DNA of 63,762 nucleotides, counting the filler. It is 8 parts of 8 records of this genome, joined end to end, with 100 filler letters (N's around TTAATTAATTAA, not from the genome) between each part and the next. Parts side by side here need not be neighbours in the genome. Positions count along the whole stretch, not along the records: positions 1 to 5,949 come from SRR31147125_32799; 7 more parts are not named here. One strand, written 5' to 3'. Shown here in pieces: positions 1-63,762 of this stretch. The translations under genes were made by a program, and so were the position numbers. A model generated the notes under the pieces. It saw only the letters and a program-made list of their open reading frames with translations. It ran no database searches and was not told where the DNA came from. Each line of letters begins with the position of its first letter. The stretch's first letter is position 1.

Positions 1-738
1 AACCTATTGTTACCCGTCTGGCGGCTGAAAAGAAGTCGTGAACGGATGTTTGATTCGATTCGGGTTGAGTTTAATCGCGGACATCAAGCCTATTTCGTCT
101 ACCCCAGAATAGAGGATACCGGAAAATCGAACCTGCGTGATGCCGAATCTATGTACGAATATCTGACAACACAAATCTATCCCGGTGTCCCGGCCGGGCT
201 TATCCATTCCCGCATTCCTGAGGATAAGAAGCTGGAAATAATGGATGCTTTCCGGGAAGGCAAGATCACCTACCTGGTTTCTACCAGTGTAGTAGAGGTC
301 GGGGTCGATGTTCCCAATGCCACCTGCATGGTAATAGAACATGCCGAACGCTTCGGGCTCTCCGCCCTGCACCAGCTGCGCGGACGTGTCGGCCGAGGAG
401 AGTTCCAGTCCTATCTGTTCCTGGTCTATTCTGATGAGCTGAATCCGGAAGGAAAAGAGCGGCTGATGATCATGAAAAGCACAAATGACGGTTTTGTTAT
501 CGCCGAAAAGGATCTGCAGATTCGCGGCCCGGGTGAAGTTGCCGGCATTCGCCAGTCTGGTTTTCTGCGATTAACTGCTGCCGACCTGATTTTGGATCAT
601 GACATTCTGACTACAGCCAGAACCGATGCCGAGAATATACTTGAGGATGATCCGGGACTGCTGGCTGCCAGAAATCAGGTTTATCGTGAAGTGCTGCAGC
701 GCTGCCCACCCTTTGATGAGGAACTGACTGAGGGGTAA
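1..738 (+). CDS. recG: ATP-dependent DNA helicase RecG, C-terminal part (5' truncated)
   Basis: Motifs STSVVEVGVDVPNAT, AERFGLSALHQLRGRVGRG, DGFVIAEKDLQIRGPGE and RQSG; probable homopolymer indel near nt 28-35. Confidence 0.95.
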   Translation, partial: NLLLPVWRLKRSRERMFDSIRVEFNRGHQAYFVYPRIEDTGKSNLRDAESMYEYLTTQIYPGVPAGLIHSRIPEDKKLEIMDAFREGKITYLVSTSVVEVGVDVPNATCMVIEHAERFGLSALHQLRGRVGRGEFQSYLFLVYSDELNPEGKERLMIMKSTNDGFVIAEKDLQIRGPGEVAGIRQSGFLRLTAADLILDHDILTTARTDAENILEDDPGLLAARNQVYREVLQRCPPFDEELTEG

Positions 739-766
739 AGGGATTATTCGTTGTAGGAATATCTAA

Positions 767-2068
767 TTACTCAAAATCCTCTATACGAATACTTACCGGT
801 TCCCCACCGGAAACATCGAGTTTTCGAATCTCTTTTATTGCCGCTTTGTAGTCCGCTTCCTTCACATTATGGGTCAGTATAACTACCGGGGCATAGCCGC
901 CTTTAAAGCGTTCACTCTGCACTACCGAAGCAATACTGATATTGTTGTGCCCCATAACTTCCATCACTTTCGCCATAGATCCCGGCTGGTCGAAGAGACT
1001 GAGACGCAGATAGTAGCGTTTTATGCTTTTCTCGGATGAACAGTAAGAAAGAGTATCTTTTTGGAGCATCATTGTGACACTAACCGGCTCACCGGCCTCA
1101 CTGAAGCGGTCCGCCGCCGCTTCCAGGATATCGCCGATTACCGCGCTTCCGGTTGGCATCTTACCCGCACCGCGACCATAGTACATGGTATCATCTACCA
1201 GGTCTCCCCTGACAAACACGGCATTGAACGAGTCGCTTACCGAAGCGATCATATGATCTTTCGGCACCAATGCTGGTTCCACGGACAATTCCACTTCACC
1301 GTTTTTATCTTTGATGATTGCCAGCAGCTTGATGCGATACCCCAGTTCATCTGCGTTGAGAATCTCCTGATTTGAAAGACCACGAATCCCGATTGCCTTG
1401 CAGGCTTCCATGGGGATTGGTGCACCATAGGCCATGGAGGCCAGAATTACCGCTTTGTGAGCTGTGTCGATACCGTCGATATCGAGGTCGGGTGGAGTTT
1501 CGGCGTATCCAAGCGCCTGCGCATCAGCCAGTATTTCATCAAACGGCAAACCTTCATGCTCCATTCTGGTCAGTATATAGTTACAGGTGCCATTTAAAAT
1601 ACCGTAAATGCTTTCAATATGATTACCGATCAGGCCTGCCCGCTGTGAACGTAAGACCGGGATACCTCCTCCAACAGCCGCTTCATAATAGATGCCTGTA
1701 CCGCTTTCTCTGGCAGCCCGGTAAATTTCCTCACCATGCTCCGCAAGCAGGGCTTTATTGGCGGTAACAATCGGCTTTTTATTTTTCAAAGATCTCAGCA
1801 CGAAATCCTTGGCAATCGTAACTCCGCCTACCAGCTCTACGATAACATCTATTTCAGGATCATCAATTACTGCCAGGGCATCGGGTGTAAGAATACTTTT
1901 ATCGATCTGCACACCGCGGTCACTTTCAATATCGAGATCGGCGATTTTTACCACATGGGGGCGCATACCTGTTCGTTGAGTTATAAGCTCCTCATTTTTT
2001 TGCAACCCTTCTACCACACCCGCGCCAACGGTACCGAATCCCAATATACCAATCTTTACTTCCCGCAT
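767..2068 (-). CDS. hom: Homoserine dehydrogenase with C-terminal ACT domain
   Basis: GFGTVG Rossmann motif, VTANKALLA, YEAAVGGGIP, GILNGTCNYIL, YGRGAG; C-terminal DQPG ACT-like domain. Confidence 0.95.
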   Translation of the reverse strand: MREVKIGILGFGTVGAGVVEGLQKNEELITQRTGMRPHVVKIADLDIESDRGVQIDKSILTPDALAVIDDPEIDVIVELVGGVTIAKDFVLRSLKNKKPIVTANKALLAEHGEEIYRAARESGTGIYYEAAVGGGIPVLRSQRAGLIGNHIESIYGILNGTCNYILTRMEHEGLPFDEILADAQALGYAETPPDLDIDGIDTAHKAVILASMAYGAPIPMEACKAIGIRGLSNQEILNADELGYRIKLLAIIKDKNGEVELSVEPALVPKDHMIASVSDSFNAVFVRGDLVDDTMYYGRGAGKMPTGSAVIGDILEAAADRFSEAGEPVSVTMMLQKDTLSYCSSEKSIKRYYLRLSLFDQPGSMAKVMEVMGHNNISIASVVQSERFKGGYAPVVILTHNVKEADYKAAIKEIRKLDVSGGEPVSIRIEDFE

Positions 2069-2172
2069 GTGTTTCCTCTCTATCTATCCACATAATGATT
2101 TTGTGTTTTATTTTTTCAGAGTATGATGGGAAGTGGGAATATTATCAAGGACCCATGTACTTCACAATTGTA

Positions 2173-2201
2173 TTGCCTGTTGGGAGCACTAGCAGTATAT
2201 T
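2173..2201 (+). promoter_or_regulatory. Putative sigma70 promoter for the heliorhodopsin gene
   Basis: TTGCCT-N17-TATATT about 80 nt upstream of the ATG. Confidence 0.45.
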
Positions 2202-2278
2202 CACGCTATCAGGGAATATTTCCTGCATATCGTTTACCACTTAACACTATTCCCTGAATGCAAATAAGGGGAACAAAT

Positions 2279-3076
2279 ATGACTAATAAAAAAACTATCA
2301 GTAAAGCTGAAAATACCATTACTTTCAGCAGACTGCGAAGGTTCAATATCATTATGGGTTGCCTGCATCTTGTGCAGGGACTCTTTATGTGGATAGTGAG
2401 CAACGATACCGCATATCCAATTTTTTCAAACTTTCTGGGATTCAATACCGAAACTTTTTCTTTATCGCCCGTTCCTGTCTTAGCATTTGAACTGCTATTG
2501 GGTCCTGCGGTGGCCATTTTTCTGCTGCTTTCAGCTCTGGCGCATTTTTATCTTTCCACAATAGGGTATGCCCGCTATGTCAAGAACTTGCAGCAGGGGA
2601 TGAATCCCATCAGATTTTATGAGTATGCGTTAAGTTCTTCGGTTATGATTGTGCTTATCGGTCTGCTGGCAGGACTCTGGGACCTTGGGGCAGTAATCCT
2701 GATCTTCTTTCTCAACGCTGCCATGAACCTTTTCGGCATTATGATGGAGTACCATAACCGCAATCTGAACAAGACAAACTGGACATCATTCATCTATGGC
2801 TCTATTGCGGGGATTGTTCCGTGGATCGTTATATTCATCTATTTTTTCGGATCAGTGAATTCCGGTGACGCAAAACCACCGGCTTTTGTCTATGCCATCA
2901 TTCCCACGCTGTTTGTTTTTTTCAATATTTTTGCCGTGAATATGGTCCTGCAGTATAAGAAGGTGGGGAGATGGAGCAATTACCTCTTTGGTGAGTATGT
3001 CTATATCGTGTTGAGTCTGGCAGCAAAGACGGTTCTGGCCTGGATGATTTTTGCGGGAACTCTGGCGCCTGTCTAG
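2279..3076 (+). CDS. heR: Heliorhodopsin (HeR)
   Basis: 7-TM pattern; LRRFN..GCLHLVQG (TM1 His), SALAHF (TM2 His), NPIRFYEYALSSSVM (Arg and Glu counterion), GEYVYIVLSLAAK (SxxxK retinal lysine); AAGGGGA RBS before ATG 2279. Confidence 0.95.
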   Translation: MTNKKTISKAENTITFSRLRRFNIIMGCLHLVQGLFMWIVSNDTAYPIFSNFLGFNTETFSLSPVPVLAFELLLGPAVAIFLLLSALAHFYLSTIGYARYVKNLQQGMNPIRFYEYALSSSVMIVLIGLLAGLWDLGAVILIFFLNAAMNLFGIMMEYHNRNLNKTNWTSFIYGSIAGIVPWIVIFIYFFGSVNSGDAKPPAFVYAIIPTLFVFFNIFAVNMVLQYKKVGRWSNYLFGEYVYIVLSLAAKTVLAWMIFAGTLAPV

Positions 3077-3204
3077 TAGATGACAGGTATTTTAGATAAT
3101 ATTCTCTTCAAGTTCACAGGTGATTTGTTATAAAGCACTTTATGGTTCGGGATTTTCCATAATATGGTACAATAATGCATCTCAGCGATATCAGGAGGAT
3201 TCGT

Positions 3205-3828
3205 ATGCTGAACCAACCGGAAATTACCGCCCGTACACTTGAGAATTTAAGAAGTCTGGATAATTTACAATGGTACCTGGTGGTACTTCTGGCTTTTGTT
3301 CTATATGTATATGGAACCGCGTTAGAACAGAAGAAATGGAATCAGATTTCCGCCGGGCTTGCGCTATACGCCGTGCACTGGTTTGTTGAAATAGTGAATG
3401 CCCTGATTCAGAAGTTCTCCGGCCACGCGCTCTGGACTGCCAGCGGCGGGACAAGTTTTGTAATTCTTGTTGGAGTTGGTATAGAAATCAGTTTTATGTT
3501 TTCCGTGGCAGGTCTTGTACTCTCCAAATTTCTTCCTGAAGACAGAAAACTGAAAATATTCGGTATTAACAACCGTATTCTTTTTGCAATAGTGAATGCC
3601 TTTCTGATTGCCTTAATTGAAGTACCGCTGGCAGCATCTCCAATCTTCCATTGGGTTTACCCTTGGTGGGGCATGCTAACCGTATGGATAATCATCTATA
3701 TACCATTCTTTCTGGCAGCCTTTCTCTGTTATGACGCTAAACCGAAGACACGCCGTGTTTTCATTGGTGGTCTGTTTGCGCTGAACCTGATAATGATGTT
3801 GATATTCATACCGTTGGGATGGATTTAG
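3205..3828 (+). CDS. Conserved-looking hypothetical integral membrane protein (about 6-7 TM)
   Basis: AGGAGG RBS at 3193-3198; multiple hydrophobic helices with intramembrane Glu/His/Trp (HWFVEIVNAL, GIEISFMF, HWVYPWW). Confidence 0.85.
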   Translation: MLNQPEITARTLENLRSLDNLQWYLVVLLAFVLYVYGTALEQKKWNQISAGLALYAVHWFVEIVNALIQKFSGHALWTASGGTSFVILVGVGIEISFMFSVAGLVLSKFLPEDRKLKIFGINNRILFAIVNAFLIALIEVPLAASPIFHWVYPWWGMLTVWIIIYIPFFLAAFLCYDAKPKTRRVFIGGLFALNLIMMLIFIPLGWI

Positions 3829-3862
3829 GAACATTACCCATTCAGGTATTGCATAAGAGATA

Positions 3863-4336
3863 TCACCGAAAATTCATAAACAGCCCGAATTCAGGCCAAA
3901 GGTCGAACGGGAACTGGATATCCCTGATTATATCCGTGTCCTCCTCAAAGAAAAGCGGGAATCCGGCGCCCGCCCGCAACCCTAAGCTAAGCGAATCAGA
4001 AAGATCCCGATGCAGTTCTACAGCTCCCCCGAAAGTGAGCATGGCTGCCTCGAAAGTCAGAGGTGCCGCCAGATTTGGTATCCCAACCAATACTTTCATA
4101 TGCCAGGGATTATCAACTATTGTTGTTTCAACAATTGCGTAGAGATCGCACATTACCAATCCCAAGGGTGAAATACCAAGATCTGTTTTCACACCCAGGT
4201 AATCATTGAAATGGTATTCAATACCTCCCTGGATTCCCAGCTGCCAATCAACTCCAACAGAGAAAATGAATCCCTCTCCTACGGCAGCTCCCAAAACAAG
4301 GCATAAGAGAATCAGTATGACAATGAGCTTTTTCAT
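3863..4336 (-). CDS. Small exported protein, probable outer-membrane beta-barrel
   Basis: MKK plus hydrophobic signal peptide; alternating Gly/aromatic beta-strand pattern; terminal strand FGLFMNFR; AGGAGG RBS. Confidence 0.6.
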   Translation of the reverse strand: MKKLIVILILLCLVLGAAVGEGFIFSVGVDWQLGIQGGIEYHFNDYLGVKTDLGISPLGLVMCDLYAIVETTIVDNPWHMKVLVGIPNLAAPLTFEAAMLTFGGAVELHRDLSDSLSLGLRAGAGFPLFFEEDTDIIRDIQFPFDLWPEFGLFMNFR

Positions 4337-4420
4337 AGCAGTCCTCCTAGGTTCAGTATACTTCCCATGAGGCTAAACTTGAAGATTTCATCATGCAATG
4401 AATCTGGATAAAAACAAACT

Positions 4421-5592
4421 TTATTCCAGATTATCACCAAACATAAGCGCACTGAGCACAAGCAGACCATGCAGCAGACTATCATCGTTGAAATCAAAGC
4501 CTTTCGAGTGGATCGGCGCATGTGTATCACCGGCCCCCAGCCAGAACATACATCCCGGACTTTGTCCAGATAGAATGCAAAGTCTTCAGCACCCATGGTA
4601 TGCTCCCGGGCAGGAATAAAAGCTCCTTCACCCAGTACTTTCTCTACCGCGTATTTAACAATAGTCGTATGTTCCTCATCATTGATAACCGGAATGTGAT
4701 ATTTATGATCATAGATCAGTTCATAATCTACTCCGCAGCTTTCCGCGGCTTTACAAATTTCATCCTTAACAGCTTTTTCAATGGCTTCACCTACACTCTT
4801 TTCCGTGTAGCGGGTTGTACCCTGCACTACTGCTTCACCCGGGATAACATTGGAATTGCTGCCGCCCTGAACGGCACAGACCGAAATAACCGCGCCCGAT
4901 TCGCTGTTGAAGCGCTGATGCAGGTTCTGCAGCCGCATGACAATATCTGCGGCAGGCAGCAGAGGATTGTTTCCAAGCTCCGGTTTTGCTCCGTGTGTAC
5001 CCTTACCTTTTATCGTGACATGAAACGTATGCGCGGCTGCGAACATGATGCCCGGCTTTGCCGAAACGGCCCCAACCGGTAAACCCGGCCAGTTATGAAA
5101 CCCATACACGGCTGACAACCCGTCACATACGCCTTTTTCCACAAGATCGGCACCCATGCAGGCCTCTTCCTCTCCCGGCTGAAAAATAAAGCGTACCGTA
5201 TTCGGCAGCTGGTCACGAAAGGTGTTGGCTATCATTGCTGCACCTATCAGAAGACTCATGTGTCCGTCATGACCGCAGGCATGCATCATACCTTCCAACT
5301 TGGAAGTATATGGCAACCCTGTCTGTTCAGAGAGCGGCAAAGCATCAATATCTGATCGCAGCCCCAGAACTTTTCCGGGGTCGCGGCCTGGTATTTCAAA
5401 TACAAGGTCCGTCCCCAGCTTCGGCTGCCAGTAGAGCGGCTGCAGGGTATCCGTAACTTCTTTAATGATTGAGCGGGTCACTACCTCATTCCCGGCTATC
5501 TCCGGATTCTGGTGCAGTGTATGGCGCAGTTCTTCGATTCCGGGCAATATTTCCTGAATATATGTACTAACAGTATCACGAGTAAGCATCAA
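4421..5592 (-). CDS. M20D family amidohydrolase (single frameshift near 4555, likely sequencing error)
   Basis: LHQNPEI, LRSDIDALP, MHACGHDGH, FQPGEE, GAEDFAFY; adding one C restores ...VPGCMFWLGAG..HSKGFDFND, ending at TAA 4421-4423. Confidence 0.9.
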
Positions 5593-5600
5593 TTTCTCCT

Positions 5601-5948
5601 TTACTCTACCAACCGAATACGGAACAGCATTGATCGGCCGTTTTTACCCGCTTCTTCCAGATTTCCGATTTTCCGCAGAAACCAGGAAAGTTTTGCAGCT
5701 TGTCCATAGGTGATAGATGCATGACCAGCCAACTCTTTATTGGTAAACTGATCTGGCAAAGTTTCTGGTAATAATATATTGAAAGATTCACGATTTTCCA
5801 AGATTATCGCATCTTTTATTTCCAGAAGCTGTCGATTTCTGATGCTGACCCCTTTTCTGCGCCAACTGCCGGAACCGTCATCGACCCGCTCTTCCAATAT
5901 CTTCACCGATACTATCTCACAAGAAAATAGCGGATGGGCAGCTGCCTG
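5601..5948 (-). CDS. Hypothetical protein, C-terminal part with HTH-like end (5' truncated at contig end)
   Basis: Frame open to the contig edge; GSWRRKGVSI and FTNKELA...LRKIG pattern. Confidence 0.7.
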   Translation of the reverse strand, partial: QAAAHPLFSCEIVSVKILEERVDDGSGSWRRKGVSIRNRQLLEIKDAIILENRESFNILLPETLPDQFTNKELAGHASITYGQAAKLSWFLRKIGNLEEAGKNGRSMLFRIRLVE

Positions 5949-5949
5949 A

Positions 5950-6049
5950 NNNNNNNNNNNNNNNNNNNNNNNNNNNNNNNNNNNNNNNNNNNNTTAATTA
6001 ATTAANNNNNNNNNNNNNNNNNNNNNNNNNNNNNNNNNNNNNNNNNNNN
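5950..6049. other. Artificial contig spacer
   Basis: N-run, TTAATTAATTAA (stops in six frames), N-run. Confidence 0.99.
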
Positions 6050-12469: not shown

Positions 12470-12620
12470 TGTGGGCTGATTGAACACAGTTAAGTGTCGT
12501 ATTATCGAAATAATGTTGTTCTATTAGTATAAATTTAGTATAAATTATATATTATTAGCTAAAACATTCCTGGGCGGAATGTCTTATAACGATTTCTATA
12601 TTTATTAATTGGGGGAGTCC

Positions 12621-14198
12621 ATGAAACGTATATTGTCATTATCAGTAATCATTATTTTTCTAGGCCTTAGCGCACTTTCAGTAGTGGGTTGTGGAGAAAG
12701 TGGTGAGTTAGAAGGAAGTGTTGAATGGTCTAGAGAGAGAATTCCTGATGTTTCCTTAAATGACGATGATACAGATACAGATGAAGATGGTGCTTTTGAT
12801 TCTAATGATAATTGCCCTAATCTTGTAAATCCAGATCAGATAGATAGTGACAACGATGGACTGGGTGATCTTTGTGATGACGATGATGATAACGATGGTT
12901 TGTTAGACGATGAAGATAATTGCAGTACAGTTTCGAATGCGGACCAATTAGATATCGATAATGATGGTGTTGGAAATGCCTGTGACAACGATATGGATGG
13001 TGATGGGACTGCTAATGGCGATGATAATTGTCCGCTTGTTCAAAACTCTGGTCAGAGTGATGTCGATGCAGACGGTGTCGGCGATGCTTGTGAAGAAGAT
13101 GCTGATGGTGATGGTTTGGGTAATGACCTCGATAATTGTCCTTTAGCTGTTAACCCAGGTCAGGAAGATCAAGATGGCGACGCAATTGGTGACGTTTGTG
13201 ATCCAGATATCGATGGCGATTCTATAAATAATACAGAAGATAACTGTGCAATAGTCCCAAACACAAATCAGGTGAATCATGATGATGATCCAGAAGGTGA
13301 TGCGTGTGATACAGATGATGATAACGATGGGATTTTAGATGATGGTGGGGATCACATCTGTGCTGATACAGAAGTTGTAGATTGTGATGATAATTGCTCT
13401 GTAGTTGCTAATGCTGGGCAAGAGGATCAGGATGGAGATTTATTGGGCGATGCTTGTGATCCTGATATCGATGGCGATGGTGTTTTGAATGATGATGATA
13501 CCTGTCCAACAGTAGACGATGATCAGACTGATACAGATGGTGATGGTGCAGGCGATGCTTGTGATACAGATGATGACGATGATGGTGTTTTGGATGTTGA
13601 CGATAACTGTCAGTTAATTTCAAACCCAGATCAGTTGGATAATGAAGCTGATGGCCTCGGTGATCTCTGTGATGATGATGATGACAATGATTCGGTTTTA
13701 GATATTAATGACAACTGTCAATTTACAAGCAACTTAGATCAGGGTGTTTCTCACTACGGTGGTCCATTCCCATCAGATCCAATCGGTGAGCTTTTTATGG
13801 CTCAGCATGCCGGCCAGCGTCCTCCAGGAGATGCTTGTAATGATGATTATAATTTCGATGGCACTGTGAATGACCCAGAAGGTCTTGGTGTTTTAGGTTG
13901 TGCTGATTATTTTAGCAGTGATTATTGTGACTGGGCAGACCCTGATGATTGGGATGGTGACGGTGTTGTTAATGGTTCCGATAGCTGTGTTGCTGTAGCA
14001 AATGGTGGTGCTTTGCAGGAAAATATCGATGATCTTCTTCCTGATGAATATGGCTTGGGTTGCGATGCAGATATCGATGGTGATGGAATTCCAAACTTTA
14101 ATATTAATAACGATTTTCTAGATGATGATATGGATGGCGATGGCGTCGATAACTTAATTGAAGATCCGCTATTTTGTGTCTTTACAGATGGCTGTTAA
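12621..14198 (+). CDS. Lipoprotein with thrombospondin type-3 (Ca-binding) repeats
   Basis: Signal peptide with VVGC lipobox; many DNCP..NPDQ.D.D.DG.GD.CD repeats; GGGGAG RBS before ATG 12621. Confidence 0.9.
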
Positions 14199-14328: not shown

Positions 14329-14428
14329 NNNNNNNNNNNNNNNNNNNNNNNNNNNNNNNNNNNNNNNNNNNNTTAATTAATTAANNNNNNNNNNNNNNNN
14401 NNNNNNNNNNNNNNNNNNNNNNNNNNNN
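14329..14428. other. Artificial contig spacer
   Basis: N-run/TTAATTAATTAA/N-run. Confidence 0.99.
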
Positions 14429-21496: not shown

Positions 21497-22456
21497 TTAT
21501 TTATACAATGCACCATAATTCTTACATGCCTTGTAATCAGAAGCCTCTTTATCACTTCCAAAAGCATTCCAGGCGCTTGGACGGAAAATATTAGCTTCAT
21601 CAACATTGTGCATAGATACAGGAATCCTGAGGATTGATGCCAATGTAATTAAATCTGCACCAATATGCCCATACGAAATTGCTCCATGGTTTGCTCCCCA
21701 GTTTGCCATTACCTCATAAACATCTTTAAAAGCACCAGCCCCCTTTAAACGAGGCACAAACCAAGTTGTTGGCCAGGTTGGGTTCGTTCGTTCATCAAGC
21801 ACTTTATGAATATCTTCGGGAAGTTCAACAGTCCAACCTTCAGCAATTTGCAATACCGGACCTAATCCTTTTACCAAATTTAAACGAGACATGGTAACTG
21901 GCATTTCAGCTTCAGTTTTAAATAACGAAGAGAAACCGCCTCCACGAAAATATCCCAAATCAGCAGGGCACCAACTGGTATTTTCCAGGCATTTATTCTT
22001 ATCTTCTTCAGTAATTTCCCAGTATGGTTTCATCACCGAATTACCCTCACTATCTTTTTGTTGTGCAGTTGCATCCAAAGTAGTAGAACCTGAATTAATC
22101 AAGTGAATGATGCCATCTTTTGCACGACCAGACAATTTCTTTCCGGTAACTCGTTCTACTGACTCAGCACTCCAGAACGTACGAACATCTGAGAATATCT
22201 GAGCTGTATTTGTTAAAAGATGGCCAAACATCATAGGCACAGCATTTAAACTGTCATTTTCAGTTGCAAAAACAAAAGCTTCACGAATACCATTCCAATC
22301 AAAAGATGAATTTAGAATTGCCTCAGGGAAATCTGCATTTGGATAATAATCAGTCCACTGACGCTGCCCCTGAAATCCACCAATCATTGCATTGTGTCCT
22401 TTTGCTTCTTCTCCAAAACCGAGTTCTTTCAAACGCGGATTTCCAACCATTAAGTC
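21497..22456 (-). CDS. fucI: L-fucose isomerase, C-terminal part (5' truncated)
   Basis: [37 protein letters not shown]. Confidence 0.97.
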
Positions 22457-22556
22457 NNNNNNNNNNNNNNNNNNNNNNNNNNNNNNNNNNNNNNNNNNNN
22501 TTAATTAATTAANNNNNNNNNNNNNNNNNNNNNNNNNNNNNNNNNNNNNNNNNNNN
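22457..22556. other. Artificial contig spacer
   Basis: N-run/TTAATTAATTAA/N-run. Confidence 0.99.
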
Positions 22557-23462
22557 TTTGGCTACAATGTGTTCGTGGCGTTTTGGGCGGCCCATTATGC
22601 GGCGGAAAAATTGGGTTGCGAGGTCATTCCCGGCGGCGTCCTCGACACCAAGGCGCGGATACTTAAAATTCAGGAATTGCAGGCCACGGCCATCATGGGC
22701 ACGCCAACGTATATTCTTGGGATGGTGGATACGGCCAAGACCAAAATGGGAATCGACCCGAAAAGTCTGGGTATTCAAAGAATTACCTGTGCCGGGGAGC
22801 CGGGCGCCAGTATTCCGGGGACCAAGAATAGAATGGAAGCTGCCTGGGGAGCCAAGGTCTTTGACCATGCCGGGGCAACGGAGATCGGCGCATGGTCGTA
22901 TGAGTGCCATGCGCAATCCGGTGGTATTCATGCCAACGAGGCCATGTTTCTTGTGGAGATCGAAGATGTGGAGACCGGTGAAATCATCGAGGCACCCGGC
23001 CGGCCGGGCAAGATGGTCATTACCGCCCTGGACCGCATGGCCCAGCCCTGTGTACGCTTTGATTCCAAGGACATAATCGAGTGGGCCGAAGACCCCTGCC
23101 CGTGCGGTTCTTCATTCAGGCTGATTCGTGGCGGGGTGCAGGGACGTGCCGATGACATCACCAAAGTCAAGGGGGTTCTGCTCAGTCCGGCGGCCATTGA
23201 AGAGGTGGTGCGCAGCATCGATGGCCTGGGGGATGAATACGAGGTCATCGTTGACAAATTGGGCGACATCGACCGCATCAAACTAAAAGTCGAAGCCTTG
23301 CCGGGGCGTGAAGAACAGGTAAAAGCAATAGAGGCGGAATTGAAGGATCAACTGCGGTTAAAAACCAATCTTGGGTATCGCATCGAGTTTTATGACTATG
23401 GCTGTCTGCCGCGCTATGAAGTCAAGGCGCGGCGCTTTAAGGATTTAAGAAAAGGGCATTAA
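22557..23462 (+). CDS. Phenylacetate-CoA ligase (PaaK) family protein, 5' truncated
   Basis: GTPTY, AGEPG, DHAGATE, CPCG, GRADD..KVKGV, KARRFKDLR. Confidence 0.9.
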   Translation, partial: FGYNVFVAFWAAHYAAEKLGCEVIPGGVLDTKARILKIQELQATAIMGTPTYILGMVDTAKTKMGIDPKSLGIQRITCAGEPGASIPGTKNRMEAAWGAKVFDHAGATEIGAWSYECHAQSGGIHANEAMFLVEIEDVETGEIIEAPGRPGKMVITALDRMAQPCVRFDSKDIIEWAEDPCPCGSSFRLIRGGVQGRADDITKVKGVLLSPAAIEEVVRSIDGLGDEYEVIVDKLGDIDRIKLKVEALPGREEQVKAIEAELKDQLRLKTNLGYRIEFYDYGCLPRYEVKARRFKDLRKGH

Positions 23463-32665: not shown

Positions 32666-32765
32666 NNNNNNNNNNNNNNNNNNNNNNNNNNNNNNNNNNN
32701 NNNNNNNNNTTAATTAATTAANNNNNNNNNNNNNNNNNNNNNNNNNNNNNNNNNNNNNNNNNNNN
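32666..32765. other. Artificial contig spacer
   Basis: N-run/TTAATTAATTAA/N-run. Confidence 0.99.
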
Positions 32766-46299: not shown

Positions 46300-46399
46300 N
46301 NNNNNNNNNNNNNNNNNNNNNNNNNNNNNNNNNNNNNNNNNNNTTAATTAATTAANNNNNNNNNNNNNNNNNNNNNNNNNNNNNNNNNNNNNNNNNNNN
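46300..46399. other. Artificial contig spacer
   Basis: N-run/TTAATTAATTAA/N-run. Confidence 0.99.
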
Positions 46400-52056: not shown

Positions 52057-52156
52057 NNNNNNNNNNNNNNNNNNNNNNNNNNNNNNNNNNNNNNNNNNNN
52101 TTAATTAATTAANNNNNNNNNNNNNNNNNNNNNNNNNNNNNNNNNNNNNNNNNNNN
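52057..52156. other. Artificial contig spacer
   Basis: N-run/TTAATTAATTAA/N-run. Confidence 0.99.
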
Positions 52157-58442: not shown

Positions 58443-58542
58443 NNNNNNNNNNNNNNNNNNNNNNNNNNNNNNNNNNNNNNNNNNNNTTAATTAATTAANN
58501 NNNNNNNNNNNNNNNNNNNNNNNNNNNNNNNNNNNNNNNNNN
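58443..58542. other. Artificial contig spacer
   Basis: N-run/TTAATTAATTAA/N-run. Confidence 0.99.
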
Positions 58543-62715: not shown

Positions 62716-63762
62716 ATGAAGAATATTATTCATAGATTTCTTATTCTCATGTTGCTTCTGACCCTGACTGTTCCGGTTTTTGCACAACAATCTCCAGGAC
62801 CAGCATTGTTAGACGATCTAAAAGGTTGGAAGCGCTCAGGGCAAGCCGCTATGCCATTTTTGGCTTTTGGTTCTGGCGGCCGGGCCATGGCTATGGGCGA
62901 TGCTGTTACTGCCCATGTCAAGGATGCCTCAGCTCTGTTCTATAATCCGGCAGGGATTGCTTATGTTGAAGGAAACTCTGTCGTTCTCGGCAATATGAAT
63001 TGGCTTCTGGATACACAAATTCTATCAGGAGCTGTAGCCGTCAACGTGAATCAAATCGGTACCTTTGGTTTAAGCTTTATGTATTACGATTACGGGGATC
63101 CGATAAATGCCACTGAAATTGATGCCTCTGCAGAATTCGGTTACCGTGATATCGGTACTATGGAACCTTCAGAATACGTCATTGGCCTTGGTTATGGCCG
63201 ACAAATTTCATCGCAATTCGCCATTGGTGGGCAGGTAAAACTTGCGCATCAGGACCTTCTTGGTGGCACAGGCGTTACGACCCGAATTGCATACGAGACG
63301 GGAACTGGCTGGATTCAGGAAGAACACGACGCAGCCAAAACGATTCTGGCATTCGACGTTGGAACCATCTACAATACGGGATTTCGTGACCTGACCATTG
63401 CCATGAGCTTTAGAAATTTTGGTGGTGAAGTAAAATATGAACGTGAAGCGTTTGATATTCCTCTGACGGTTCGTTTTGGTATAAATGGAGATATTTTCAA
63501 ACTATTTAATATGAACAAAGAGGATATGCAGCTAATACTGAACTTTGATTATCTCCACCCACGTAACTGGGATGAACAGGTTAATACAGGTTTGGAATAC
63601 GCATTTAATAACATGTTCTATGTTCGTGGAGGATATAAATTCAATTATTCGTCAGAAGGTTTAACAGTCGGTGGAGGTGTCAGACTGGATCTGTCTATGG
63701 GTGGCGTCAGAATTGACTATGCCTATAAGGATACCAAAGATACCCTGTTTGATGCTGTTCAT
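62716..63762 (+). CDS. PorV/PorQ family outer-membrane protein (3' truncated; absent from the ORF track)
   Basis: AGGAG RBS; signal peptide; FL....GRAMAMGDA, DASALFYNPAG, FDVGTIY, NFG, GLEY, RGGY, IDYAY. Confidence 0.88.
   Translation, partial: MKNIIHRFLILMLLLTLTVPVFAQQSPGPALLDDLKGWKRSGQAAMPFLAFGSGGRAMAMGDAVTAHVKDASALFYNPAGIAYVEGNSVVLGNMNWLLDTQILSGAVAVNVNQIGTFGLSFMYYDYGDPINATEIDASAEFGYRDIGTMEPSEYVIGLGYGRQISSQFAIGGQVKLAHQDLLGGTGVTTRIAYETGTGWIQEEHDAAKTILAFDVGTIYNTGFRDLTIAMSFRNFGGEVKYEREAFDIPLTVRFGINGDIFKLFNMNKEDMQLILNFDYLHPRNWDEQVNTGLEYAFNNMFYVRGGYKFNYSSEGLTVGGGVRLDLSMGGVRIDYAYKDTKDTLFDAVH

Follow-up and report, generated by a model that had tools for sequence, protein, structure and literature searches.

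Genes at the locus

The stretch of DNA analyzed here (63,762 nucleotides, hereafter the window) carries an intact heliorhodopsin gene on its first contig, positions 1-5949, together with the 3' end of recG, a homoserine dehydrogenase gene (hom), genes for a membrane protein (TM217) and a predicted outer-membrane protein (OMP157), an M20 amidohydrolase gene and a small open reading frame (ORF) of 101 codons. The relatives that matter most for this contig are the members of a GTDB order of seven species genomes in a single family, called here the order of G002, which includes G001; its Spirochaetales/Spirochaetia label is taken from the NCBI titles of the metagenome-assembled genomes (MAGs) G001 and G002. 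We consider it likely that the gene is a functional heliorhodopsin of the type of BcHeR, a characterized pigment, on a genuine chromosomal contig of an outer-membrane-bearing lineage labelled Spirochaetia. The features, numbered along the window, are as follows.

1..738, plus strand: 3' part of recG (C-terminal 245 amino acids), running off the contig start (Pfam Helicase_C, RecG_dom3_C)
740..4420: 3.7-kb block carrying hom, heliorhodopsin, TM217 and OMP157, which interrupts the recG-M20 spacer when compared with four related genomes
767..2068, minus strand: stand-alone homoserine dehydrogenase (hom) with an ACT domain, foreign and Kiritimatiellales-like (Pfam)
2266..2272, plus strand: Shine-Dalgarno-like AAGGGGA ahead of the ATG at 2279 (read from the sequence)
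2279..3076, plus strand: heliorhodopsin, 265 amino acids, intact (PF18761 match, PDB relatives, clade with the orthologues of the order)
2615..2617, plus strand: codon of F113, at the position of Trp105 of the heliorhodopsin 48C12 (alignment, codon check, clade-wide state)
2621-2623, plus strand: codon of E115, counterion (alignment, codon check)
3026..3028, plus strand: codon of K250, retinal Schiff-base lysine, K241 of 48C12 (alignment, codon check)
3067..3088, plus strand: hairpin that overlaps the stop codon of the heliorhodopsin gene, with a T-rich tail after it; possible weak terminator (consensus scan only)
3175..3828, plus strand: TM217, all-helical membrane protein of unknown function (no Pfam match)
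3863..4336, minus strand: OMP157, 157 amino acids, predicted signal peptide and 8-stranded outer-membrane beta-barrel (AlphaFold2 model, Foldseek)
4421..5592, minus strand: M20 amidohydrolase, with one frameshift near 4537-4564 (Pfam; tblastn with a 389-residue relative)
5601..5906, minus strand: orf101, small ORF (101 amino acids) upstream of M20, conserved in related genomes (tblastn, 47-75% in L181-L184)
5950..6049: artificial spacer N44-TTAATTAATTAA-N44, which ends the heliorhodopsin contig
14329-14428, 22457-22556, 32666-32765, 46300-46399, 52057-52156 and 58443-58542: six more identical spacers

The heliorhodopsin and its clade

The ORF that encloses the gene spans positions 2258-3076 (plus strand). 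Its most likely start is the ATG at 2279: the sequence AAGGGG precedes it by 7 nt, and the alignments of relatives begin at residues 1-3 of the 265-residue form. The Pfam profile Heliorhodopsin (PF18761) matches the ORF with an E-value of 9.3e-96 (320.3 bits; gathering cut-off 26.7), residues 19-262 covering the profile at full length (positions 1-242 of 242), and the closest solved structures, TaHeR (6is6; E 1.4e-74) and the 48C12 entries 6su3 and 9ljj (about 1e-56), align end to end. Residue equivalences were read from the alignment with these PDB relatives, in which the chain numbering places the Arg, Trp, Glu and Tyr of R-W-V-E-Y at 104, 105, 107 and 108, as published for 48C12, and the codons were checked. 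The histidines H30, within LHLVQG of transmembrane helix (TM) 1, and H89, within SALAHF of TM2, correspond to H23 and H80 of 48C12. In TM3, R112, F113, E115 and Y116 correspond to R104, W105, E107 and Y108; E157 corresponds to E149, and S246 and K250 of SLAAK in TM7 to S237 and K241. The protein has, then, a Glu at the counterion position of TM3 with an Arg three residues before it, a His in each of TM1 and TM2, and the SxxxK motif of TM7 with the retinal lysine. Its first 25 residues include six Lys or Arg versus one Asp or Glu, which is only a positive-inside hint as to the inverted topology (N-terminus cytoplasmic). A preliminary reading of this DNA, made from the letters alone (the sequence-only reading), had described an intact heliorhodopsin with its signature residues and with R-F-Y-E-Y in place of R-W-x-E-Y; the profile search bears out the first description, and the alignment with 48C12 and TaHeR and the codons bear out the second. 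Judged by its sequence, the ORF at 2279-3076 belongs to a known heliorhodopsin clade and is unremarkable within it.

The Phe at the conserved Trp of TM3 had been singled out in the sequence-only reading; it is no peculiarity of this protein and marks the whole clade. R-F-Y-E-Y occurs in 80 of the 80 best genomic relatives, taken from contigs of one genome per species. When the 150 best representatives of clusters at 50% identity were aligned, the column of Trp105 held 111 Trp, 23 Phe and 5 other residues (139 in all) and was gapped in 11 sequences; identity to the query is 50-72% for the 23 Phe-bearing representatives and 29-53% for the 111 with Trp. Outside the order of G002 the closest relatives are from Anaerolineae, and the best metagenomic heliorhodopsin is 77% identical. 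The sole PF18761 match of Bellilinea caldifistulae GOMI-1 (L045), which we take to be BcHeR on the ground that this strain has a single match, is 70% identical to the query, reads R-F-Y-E-Y and falls in the same clade. With Phe at the Trp105 position and a place inside this clade in the tree, the window protein belongs to the BcHeR/Anaerolineae type. On this comparison, Phe-for-Trp is a clade character without special weight.

The excerpts available of the relevant structural and spectroscopic studies show what this position does elsewhere. Trp105 of 48C12 is an aromatic residue of the pocket wall, at the position of bacteriorhodopsin Tyr83, and helps to stabilize Glu149 (Kovalev et al., PMC7049168), and the W105A variant forms no pigment (PMC7807009). 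BcHeR forms a pigment with 88% all-trans retinal, transports no ions, has a photocycle longer than 1 s and lacks an M intermediate (PMC9385722). BcHeR, with its Phe, is a characterized pigment that works, so a Phe occurring naturally at this position need not prevent pigment formation.

The same RFYEY clade also contains the heliorhodopsins of two Deinococcota-labelled Trueperaceae MAGs (L025 and L065), paired with a Shimodaira-Hasegawa-like approximate likelihood ratio test (SH-aLRT) support of 99, and that of one Actinomycetota genome (L073, Coriobacteriaceae). The gene of L025 has a GC content at third codon positions (GC3) of 0.94 in a locus of 70% GC. The Trueperaceae and Coriobacteriaceae cases suggest further transfers out of Anaerolineae.

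Inheritance within the order

PF18761 matches were found in five of the seven genomes of the order of G002, and the proteins are 85% (G406), 82% (G408), 80% (G409), 78% (G001) and 74% (G002) identical to that of the window. In quick IQ-TREE trees the window protein pairs with that of G406 (SH-aLRT 99), and the proteins of the window, G406, G409, G001 and G002 form one clade (95) that is nested among Anaerolineae sequences, in a tree with 74 Chloroflexota rows around it; the 82-residue fragment of G408 was misplaced in one tree and omitted from the later one. Between the window gene and its orthologues in G406, G409, G001 and G002, nonsynonymous differences per site (pN) are 0.08-0.17 versus 0.73-0.87 for synonymous differences (pS), the synonymous sites being saturated. 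The GC3 of the gene tracks the GC content of its own locus or genome, from 0.32 (L002) to 0.80 (L001), and its neighbors differ in every genome of the order. The flanks of the window gene share no synteny with 160 other heliorhodopsin loci (80 genomic and 80 metagenomic). The single clade of the order, purifying selection and the tracking of GC3 indicate that the gene was acquired long ago and has since been inherited under selection. We propose that an ancestor of the order probably acquired the gene from a Chloroflexota donor, and that it has since been passed on and kept by purifying selection while moving about within genomes; in the present organism it sits in a mosaic insertion of 3.7 kb between recG and M20.

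In a sample of the class, 15 of 401 genomes have a PF18761 match, 10 of them among the 394 genomes outside the order, while in a sample of the phylum the single positive genome out of 401 is G001. The class heliorhodopsins from outside the order form at least three further lineages (RFFEY, RFYEY and RWYEY), some of them on contigs of 31-112 kb. These other genes comprise L185-L192 (from G595, G436, G732, G513, G677, G420, G489 and G455) and broken fragments in G422 and G492.

The host lineage and the inserted block

In sequence as well as gene order, the two ends of the heliorhodopsin contig resemble the genomes of the order of G002. Six of the seven share 72-76% identity with the RecG C-terminus, whereas a Treponemataceae MAG reaches 51% and two Anaerolineae reach 45-47%. 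The M20 protein is 60-71% identical in G001, G406, G407, G408 and G409; a tblastn search with the 389-residue relative splits it into frames -1 and -3, and the true C-terminus continues in the other frame to about position 4424. The frameshift is either a low-coverage sequencing error or the mark of a pseudogene. The genes recG, M20 and orf101 are adjacent in four genomes of the order (G407 contig C140, G001 C202, G406 C81 and G409 C207), and window positions 18-739 and 4421-5714 are collinear with those four contigs at 66-72% identity. All six genes of the heliorhodopsin contig have a GC3 of 0.46-0.53. The spirochaete-like host suggested by the sequence-only reading thus finds support in RecG and in the recG-M20-orf101 synteny, and the contig likely derives from an uncultured member, or a close sister, of the order, as judged by sequence similarity and gene order.

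In these relatives recG and M20 lie next to each other and are collinear with both contig ends, so that positions 740-4420 are an insertion and hom is part of it. The recG-M20 spacer measures about 100 bp in G407, and no direct repeats flanking the insertion were found.

The homoserine dehydrogenase encoded in the block is 79% identical to that of Tichowtungia aerotolerans and 73-75% identical to those of Pontiella isolates, beside both of which it falls in the tree. It is 85-87% identical to MAG proteins labelled Spirochaetes and Bacteroidetes, its matches in the ESM Atlas come from mixed phyla, and in the phylum of G001 (301 genomes) its identity does not exceed 46%. Within the order the island copy occurs only in G407 (85%; locus L177 on C370, a 1.7-kb contig), where 86 bp upstream are also conserved; the usual homoserine dehydrogenase of the order is a distant form of 794-861 amino acids, present in five genomes. 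The island hom looks like a cross-phylum transfer of a housekeeping gene that misleads single-gene assignment of the host. The phylogeny of Hom had been recommended as a check on host identity, and it was initially misleading, Hom itself being foreign and Kiritimatiellales-like.

TM217 has no match in Pfam or the PDB, is absent from the 10 related and control genomes searched and from the 160 other heliorhodopsin loci, and gives a poor single-sequence model (predicted local distance difference test, pLDDT, 61). In the ESM Atlas it resembles clusters of the AF_1327 family PF27271 with a feature score of 0.97, a likeness by language-model features only. DUF2177 and DegV proteins are reported beside heliorhodopsins in the excerpt available of Chazan et al. 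(bioRxiv 10.1101/2021.02.16.431466); TM217 was considered as such a neighbor and belongs to neither family.

The envelope of the host

The sequence-only reading had placed the gene in a diderm, in part from a beta-barrel-like protein next to it. That protein, OMP157, matches the barrel family PF13505 with an E-value of 7e-5, below the cut-off. Its AlphaFold2 model, from a thin alignment, has a pLDDT of 79 and a predicted template modelling score (pTM) of 0.70 and shows a helix at residues 2-17 followed by eight strands; its Foldseek matches are designed 8-stranded transmembrane barrels, OmpX, Ail, OmpA, OmpW and NspA. The description as barrel-like therefore fits a model of a signal peptide with an 8-stranded barrel like OmpX, OmpA and OmpW. 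Homologues of OMP157 number only four in a large protein set, with one in G408.

Omp85/BamA, in frames of 755-859 amino acids, was found in six of the seven genomes of the order and in neither of two Anaerolineae controls. LpxC was found in none of the seven genomes of the order and in none of the 401 genomes of the class, although the controls were positive in E. coli, Caulobacter, Synechococcus and Bacteroides. Thus, of the diderm claim, the outer membrane stands, on the BamA of relatives and the OMP157 model, and the classical diderm with lipopolysaccharide (LPS) does not. Flagellin_N was not found in the five genomes of the order searched, with positive controls, nor was FlaA in a search of five genomes made without a positive control, so that these genomes give no sign of periplasmic flagella of the spirochaete type; Sphaerochaeta is a known non-flagellated spirochaete (bioRxiv 10.1101/356287). 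From gene content and the barrel model, the host is likely to bear an outer membrane, and its lineage probably lacks LPS and is probably non-flagellated. The same pattern, BamA-positive and LpxC-negative, was seen in the control genomes of Deinococcus and Thermotoga.

The other pieces of the window

The contig spoken of in the sequence-only reading extends over positions 1-5949 only. The window is made of eight contigs split by the seven spacers, which join separate pieces, so that only positions 1-5949 are usable as heliorhodopsin context and genes beyond 5949 are uninformative about the host. GC varies between 0.35 and 0.53 among the pieces, and the joints truncate genes; fucI (21497-22450) matches only positions 274-590 of its profile, and paaK (22569-23459) only positions 141-422. 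The rest of the window was rejected as heliorhodopsin context on the evidence of the spacers, the GC range and the genes truncated at the joints. Between the first piece and polA or fucP, the correlation in relative synonymous codon usage (RSCU) is only 0.11-0.15. The eight pieces need not share a common organism, and their source organisms may differ.

Two genes on other pieces encode proteins of note. Piece 8 carries a PorV/PorQ-family outer-membrane protein (62716-63762; NF033709, 180 bits), which, being on a separate piece, is no context for the heliorhodopsin. On piece 2, five stretches of a 529-residue protein (12609-14198) match the thrombospondin-type-3-repeat MtsC model (E 3e-84, below the cut-off), and the protein also matches an Omp28-related selenoprotein model.

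Alternative explanations

Several observations count against a working heliorhodopsin in an outer-membrane-bearing, Spirochaetia-labelled host. The Spirochaetia label comes from the NCBI titles of two MAGs, and the flagellin search gave no match. For the BamA, LPS and retinal genes of the host the evidence comes from relatives whose RecG is only 72-76% identical, and BamA was not found in G002. The frameshift in M20 indicates sequence errors or gene decay on the contig, contig ends truncate the heliorhodopsins of G406 and G408, and those of G422 and G492, elsewhere in the class, are fragmentary. The RSCU of the heliorhodopsin gene correlates 0.50 with that of its flanks, a value reached by 28 of 160 foreign heliorhodopsin genes. 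Only one public run has matching DNA (22% of words), in fragments of 151-260 nt, and none of the fragments listed bridges positions 739-767 or 2090-2162; no RNA run with a match is listed. The RSCU value and these short fragments weigh neither for nor against the insertion. Retinal binding and expression are presumed, and no conserved neighbor points to a partner of the heliorhodopsin.

The most serious alternative, though an unlikely one, is that the gene is a relic without light function, heading to loss in a lineage that is likely anaerobic and has no visible retinal pathway. The retinal-forming gene blh was found in none of the seven genomes of the order, in a search that had no positive control, two other genomes of the class (G422 and G492) hold the broken fragments, and BcHeR itself comes from a low-light digester, according to the part available of PMC9385722. 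However, the ORF is intact and lacks none of the functional residues, pN is 0.08-0.17 while synonymous sites are saturated, and the gene is retained in five of the seven genomes of the order. Moreover, blh is generally rare in heliorhodopsin carriers, as stated in the available text of Chazan et al. (10.1101/2021.02.16.431466).

It is quite improbable that a chimeric assembly brought in the block at 740-4420, or only the heliorhodopsin gene, from a co-occurring organism, whether of Anaerolineae or another group. Such an error might be suspected from the low coverage (fragment depth of 2-3 in the only public run with matching DNA), the M20 frameshift, the RSCU correlation that many foreign genes also reach, and the Anaerolineae affinity of the closest relatives outside the order. 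A chimera, however, would need two joins exactly in a 100-bp spacer that is conserved in four relatives. The nearest kin of the heliorhodopsin are in the same order and not in Anaerolineae, GC3 is uniform across the contig, and the order genome G408 has a homologue of OMP157. In run X1, fragments from hom, the spacer on the hom side, the heliorhodopsin start and the heliorhodopsin/TM217 junction have equal depth and 100% identity, although this run is possibly the source sample and so not independent.

A contig from Kiritimatiellales, classical LPS diderms of the Planctomycetes-Verrucomicrobia-Chlamydiae (PVC) group, with the heliorhodopsin beside a native hom, was first held on the strength of Hom (its high identity to Tichowtungia and Pontiella, their adjacency in the tree and the ceiling of 46% in the phylum of G001) and is now the least probable reading of all, since recG at one end and M20 with orf101 at the other agree with the order of G002 both in sequence and in their arrangement, the heliorhodopsin clusters with those of that order, and the only Kiritimatiellales-type gene, hom, lies inside the inserted block and has an 85% copy with its conserved 86 bp upstream in G407.

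Function and retinal supply

By analogy with its relatives, the heliorhodopsin would carry all-trans retinal on K250, linked as a protonated Schiff base whose counterion is E115, and light would drive a slow photocycle in which no ions are transported. A late state of long lifetime may then signal to, or regulate, a partner protein that the locus does not identify. Phe113 would mean the loss of the indole that in 48C12 helps to hold Glu149 (here E157), a property of the clade. Because the protein is 70% identical to BcHeR and conserves the functional residues, it is most likely a slow-cycling, non-transporting retinal photosensor or regulator.

Retinal is probably scavenged rather than made. 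No blh or crt family was found among the six ORFs of the first piece (Pfam) or the 42 ORFs of at least 150 amino acids elsewhere in the window (NCBIfam), which agrees, at the level of family scans and with the contig corrected to positions 1-5949, with the earlier remark that such genes are missing from the contig. A gene of the phytoene-synthase family is present in two of the seven genomes of the order.

Heliorhodopsins and the outer membrane

The value of the locus lies in its host range, a lineage-wide heliorhodopsin in bacteria that have outer-membrane machinery and no LPS genes. According to the parts available of Bulzu et al. (PMC8612252), heliorhodopsins are restricted to monoderms, 1,319 of 1,319 classified contigs of at least 5 kb coming from monoderm phyla, and there are three exceptions, including a 60%-complete Spirochaetota genome that the authors could not judge. 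Flores-Uribe et al. (bioRxiv 10.1101/356287) reported one exception to the restriction, the Sphaerochaeta MAG UBA6084. The opposite view was taken from database taxonomy by Kovalev et al. (PMC7049168, in the excerpt available), and a model in which exogenous xanthophyll antennas are taken up builds on the monoderm restriction, with the outer membrane as a block (bioRxiv 10.1101/2025.11.27.691015, likewise an excerpt). Our literature search found nothing that combines heliorhodopsin with Kiritimatiell*, and the matches for Spirochaet* describe no heliorhodopsin-bearing spirochaete lineage.

Heliorhodopsin is the rule in the order of G002 (5/7) and recurrent in the class sample (15/401). That the order is an exception to the rule of heliorhodopsins in monoderms only, and not a classical Gram-negative case, is in our view solid. 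With LpxC missing from the class, the monoderm rule is sharpened by these data and not overturned. It is quite possible, though less likely than not, that LPS, and not the outer membrane as such, keeps heliorhodopsins out. On this reading a BamA-bearing order without LpxC has inherited and kept one by purifying selection, and several further heliorhodopsin lineages have reached the same LPS-free class. The idea was examined within one class, in which none of the 401 genomes sampled has LpxC and which therefore provides no contrast. Other heliorhodopsin hosts with an outer membrane are the Trueperaceae seen here and the Dictyoglomota and Thermotogae reported in the literature. If LPS is what excludes heliorhodopsins, the monoderm rule would become a permeability rule, under which a hydrophobic ligand (retinal, a carotenoid antenna or another lipid) must reach the cytoplasmic membrane from outside, and the data thus raise LPS-dependent permeability as a testable variable.

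Comparison with known heliorhodopsins

The heliorhodopsin of the window aligns over its full length with TaHeR (6is6) and with HeR-48C12 (6su3, 6uh3 and 9ljj). The residues H23, H80, R104, E107, Y108, S111, M141, E149, F206, Q216, Y226, E230, S237 and K241 of 48C12 are all kept; the differences are W105 to F113, Q213 to M222 and I142 to N150, the latter two being the same in TaHeR. With BcHeR it shares 70% identity, R-F-Y-E-Y and its clade, and a slow photocycle without ion transport may be expected in common. The two differ in their hosts, Chloroflexota for BcHeR and a Spirochaetia-labelled order with BamA here, and in genomic context.

The nearest parallels with respect to the host are UBA6084 (10.1101/356287) and the Spirochaetota genome of Bulzu et al. 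(PMC8612252, in the excerpt available), in which a heliorhodopsin likewise occurs in a MAG of the spirochaete phylum and for which the authors also raise LPS-less or atypical envelopes. Those are single, doubted cases, whereas the present gene lies on a contig anchored by synteny and belongs to one clade found in five of the seven genomes of its order. The class to which the order belongs also has heliorhodopsins in 10 of the 394 other genomes sampled, in several separate lineages.

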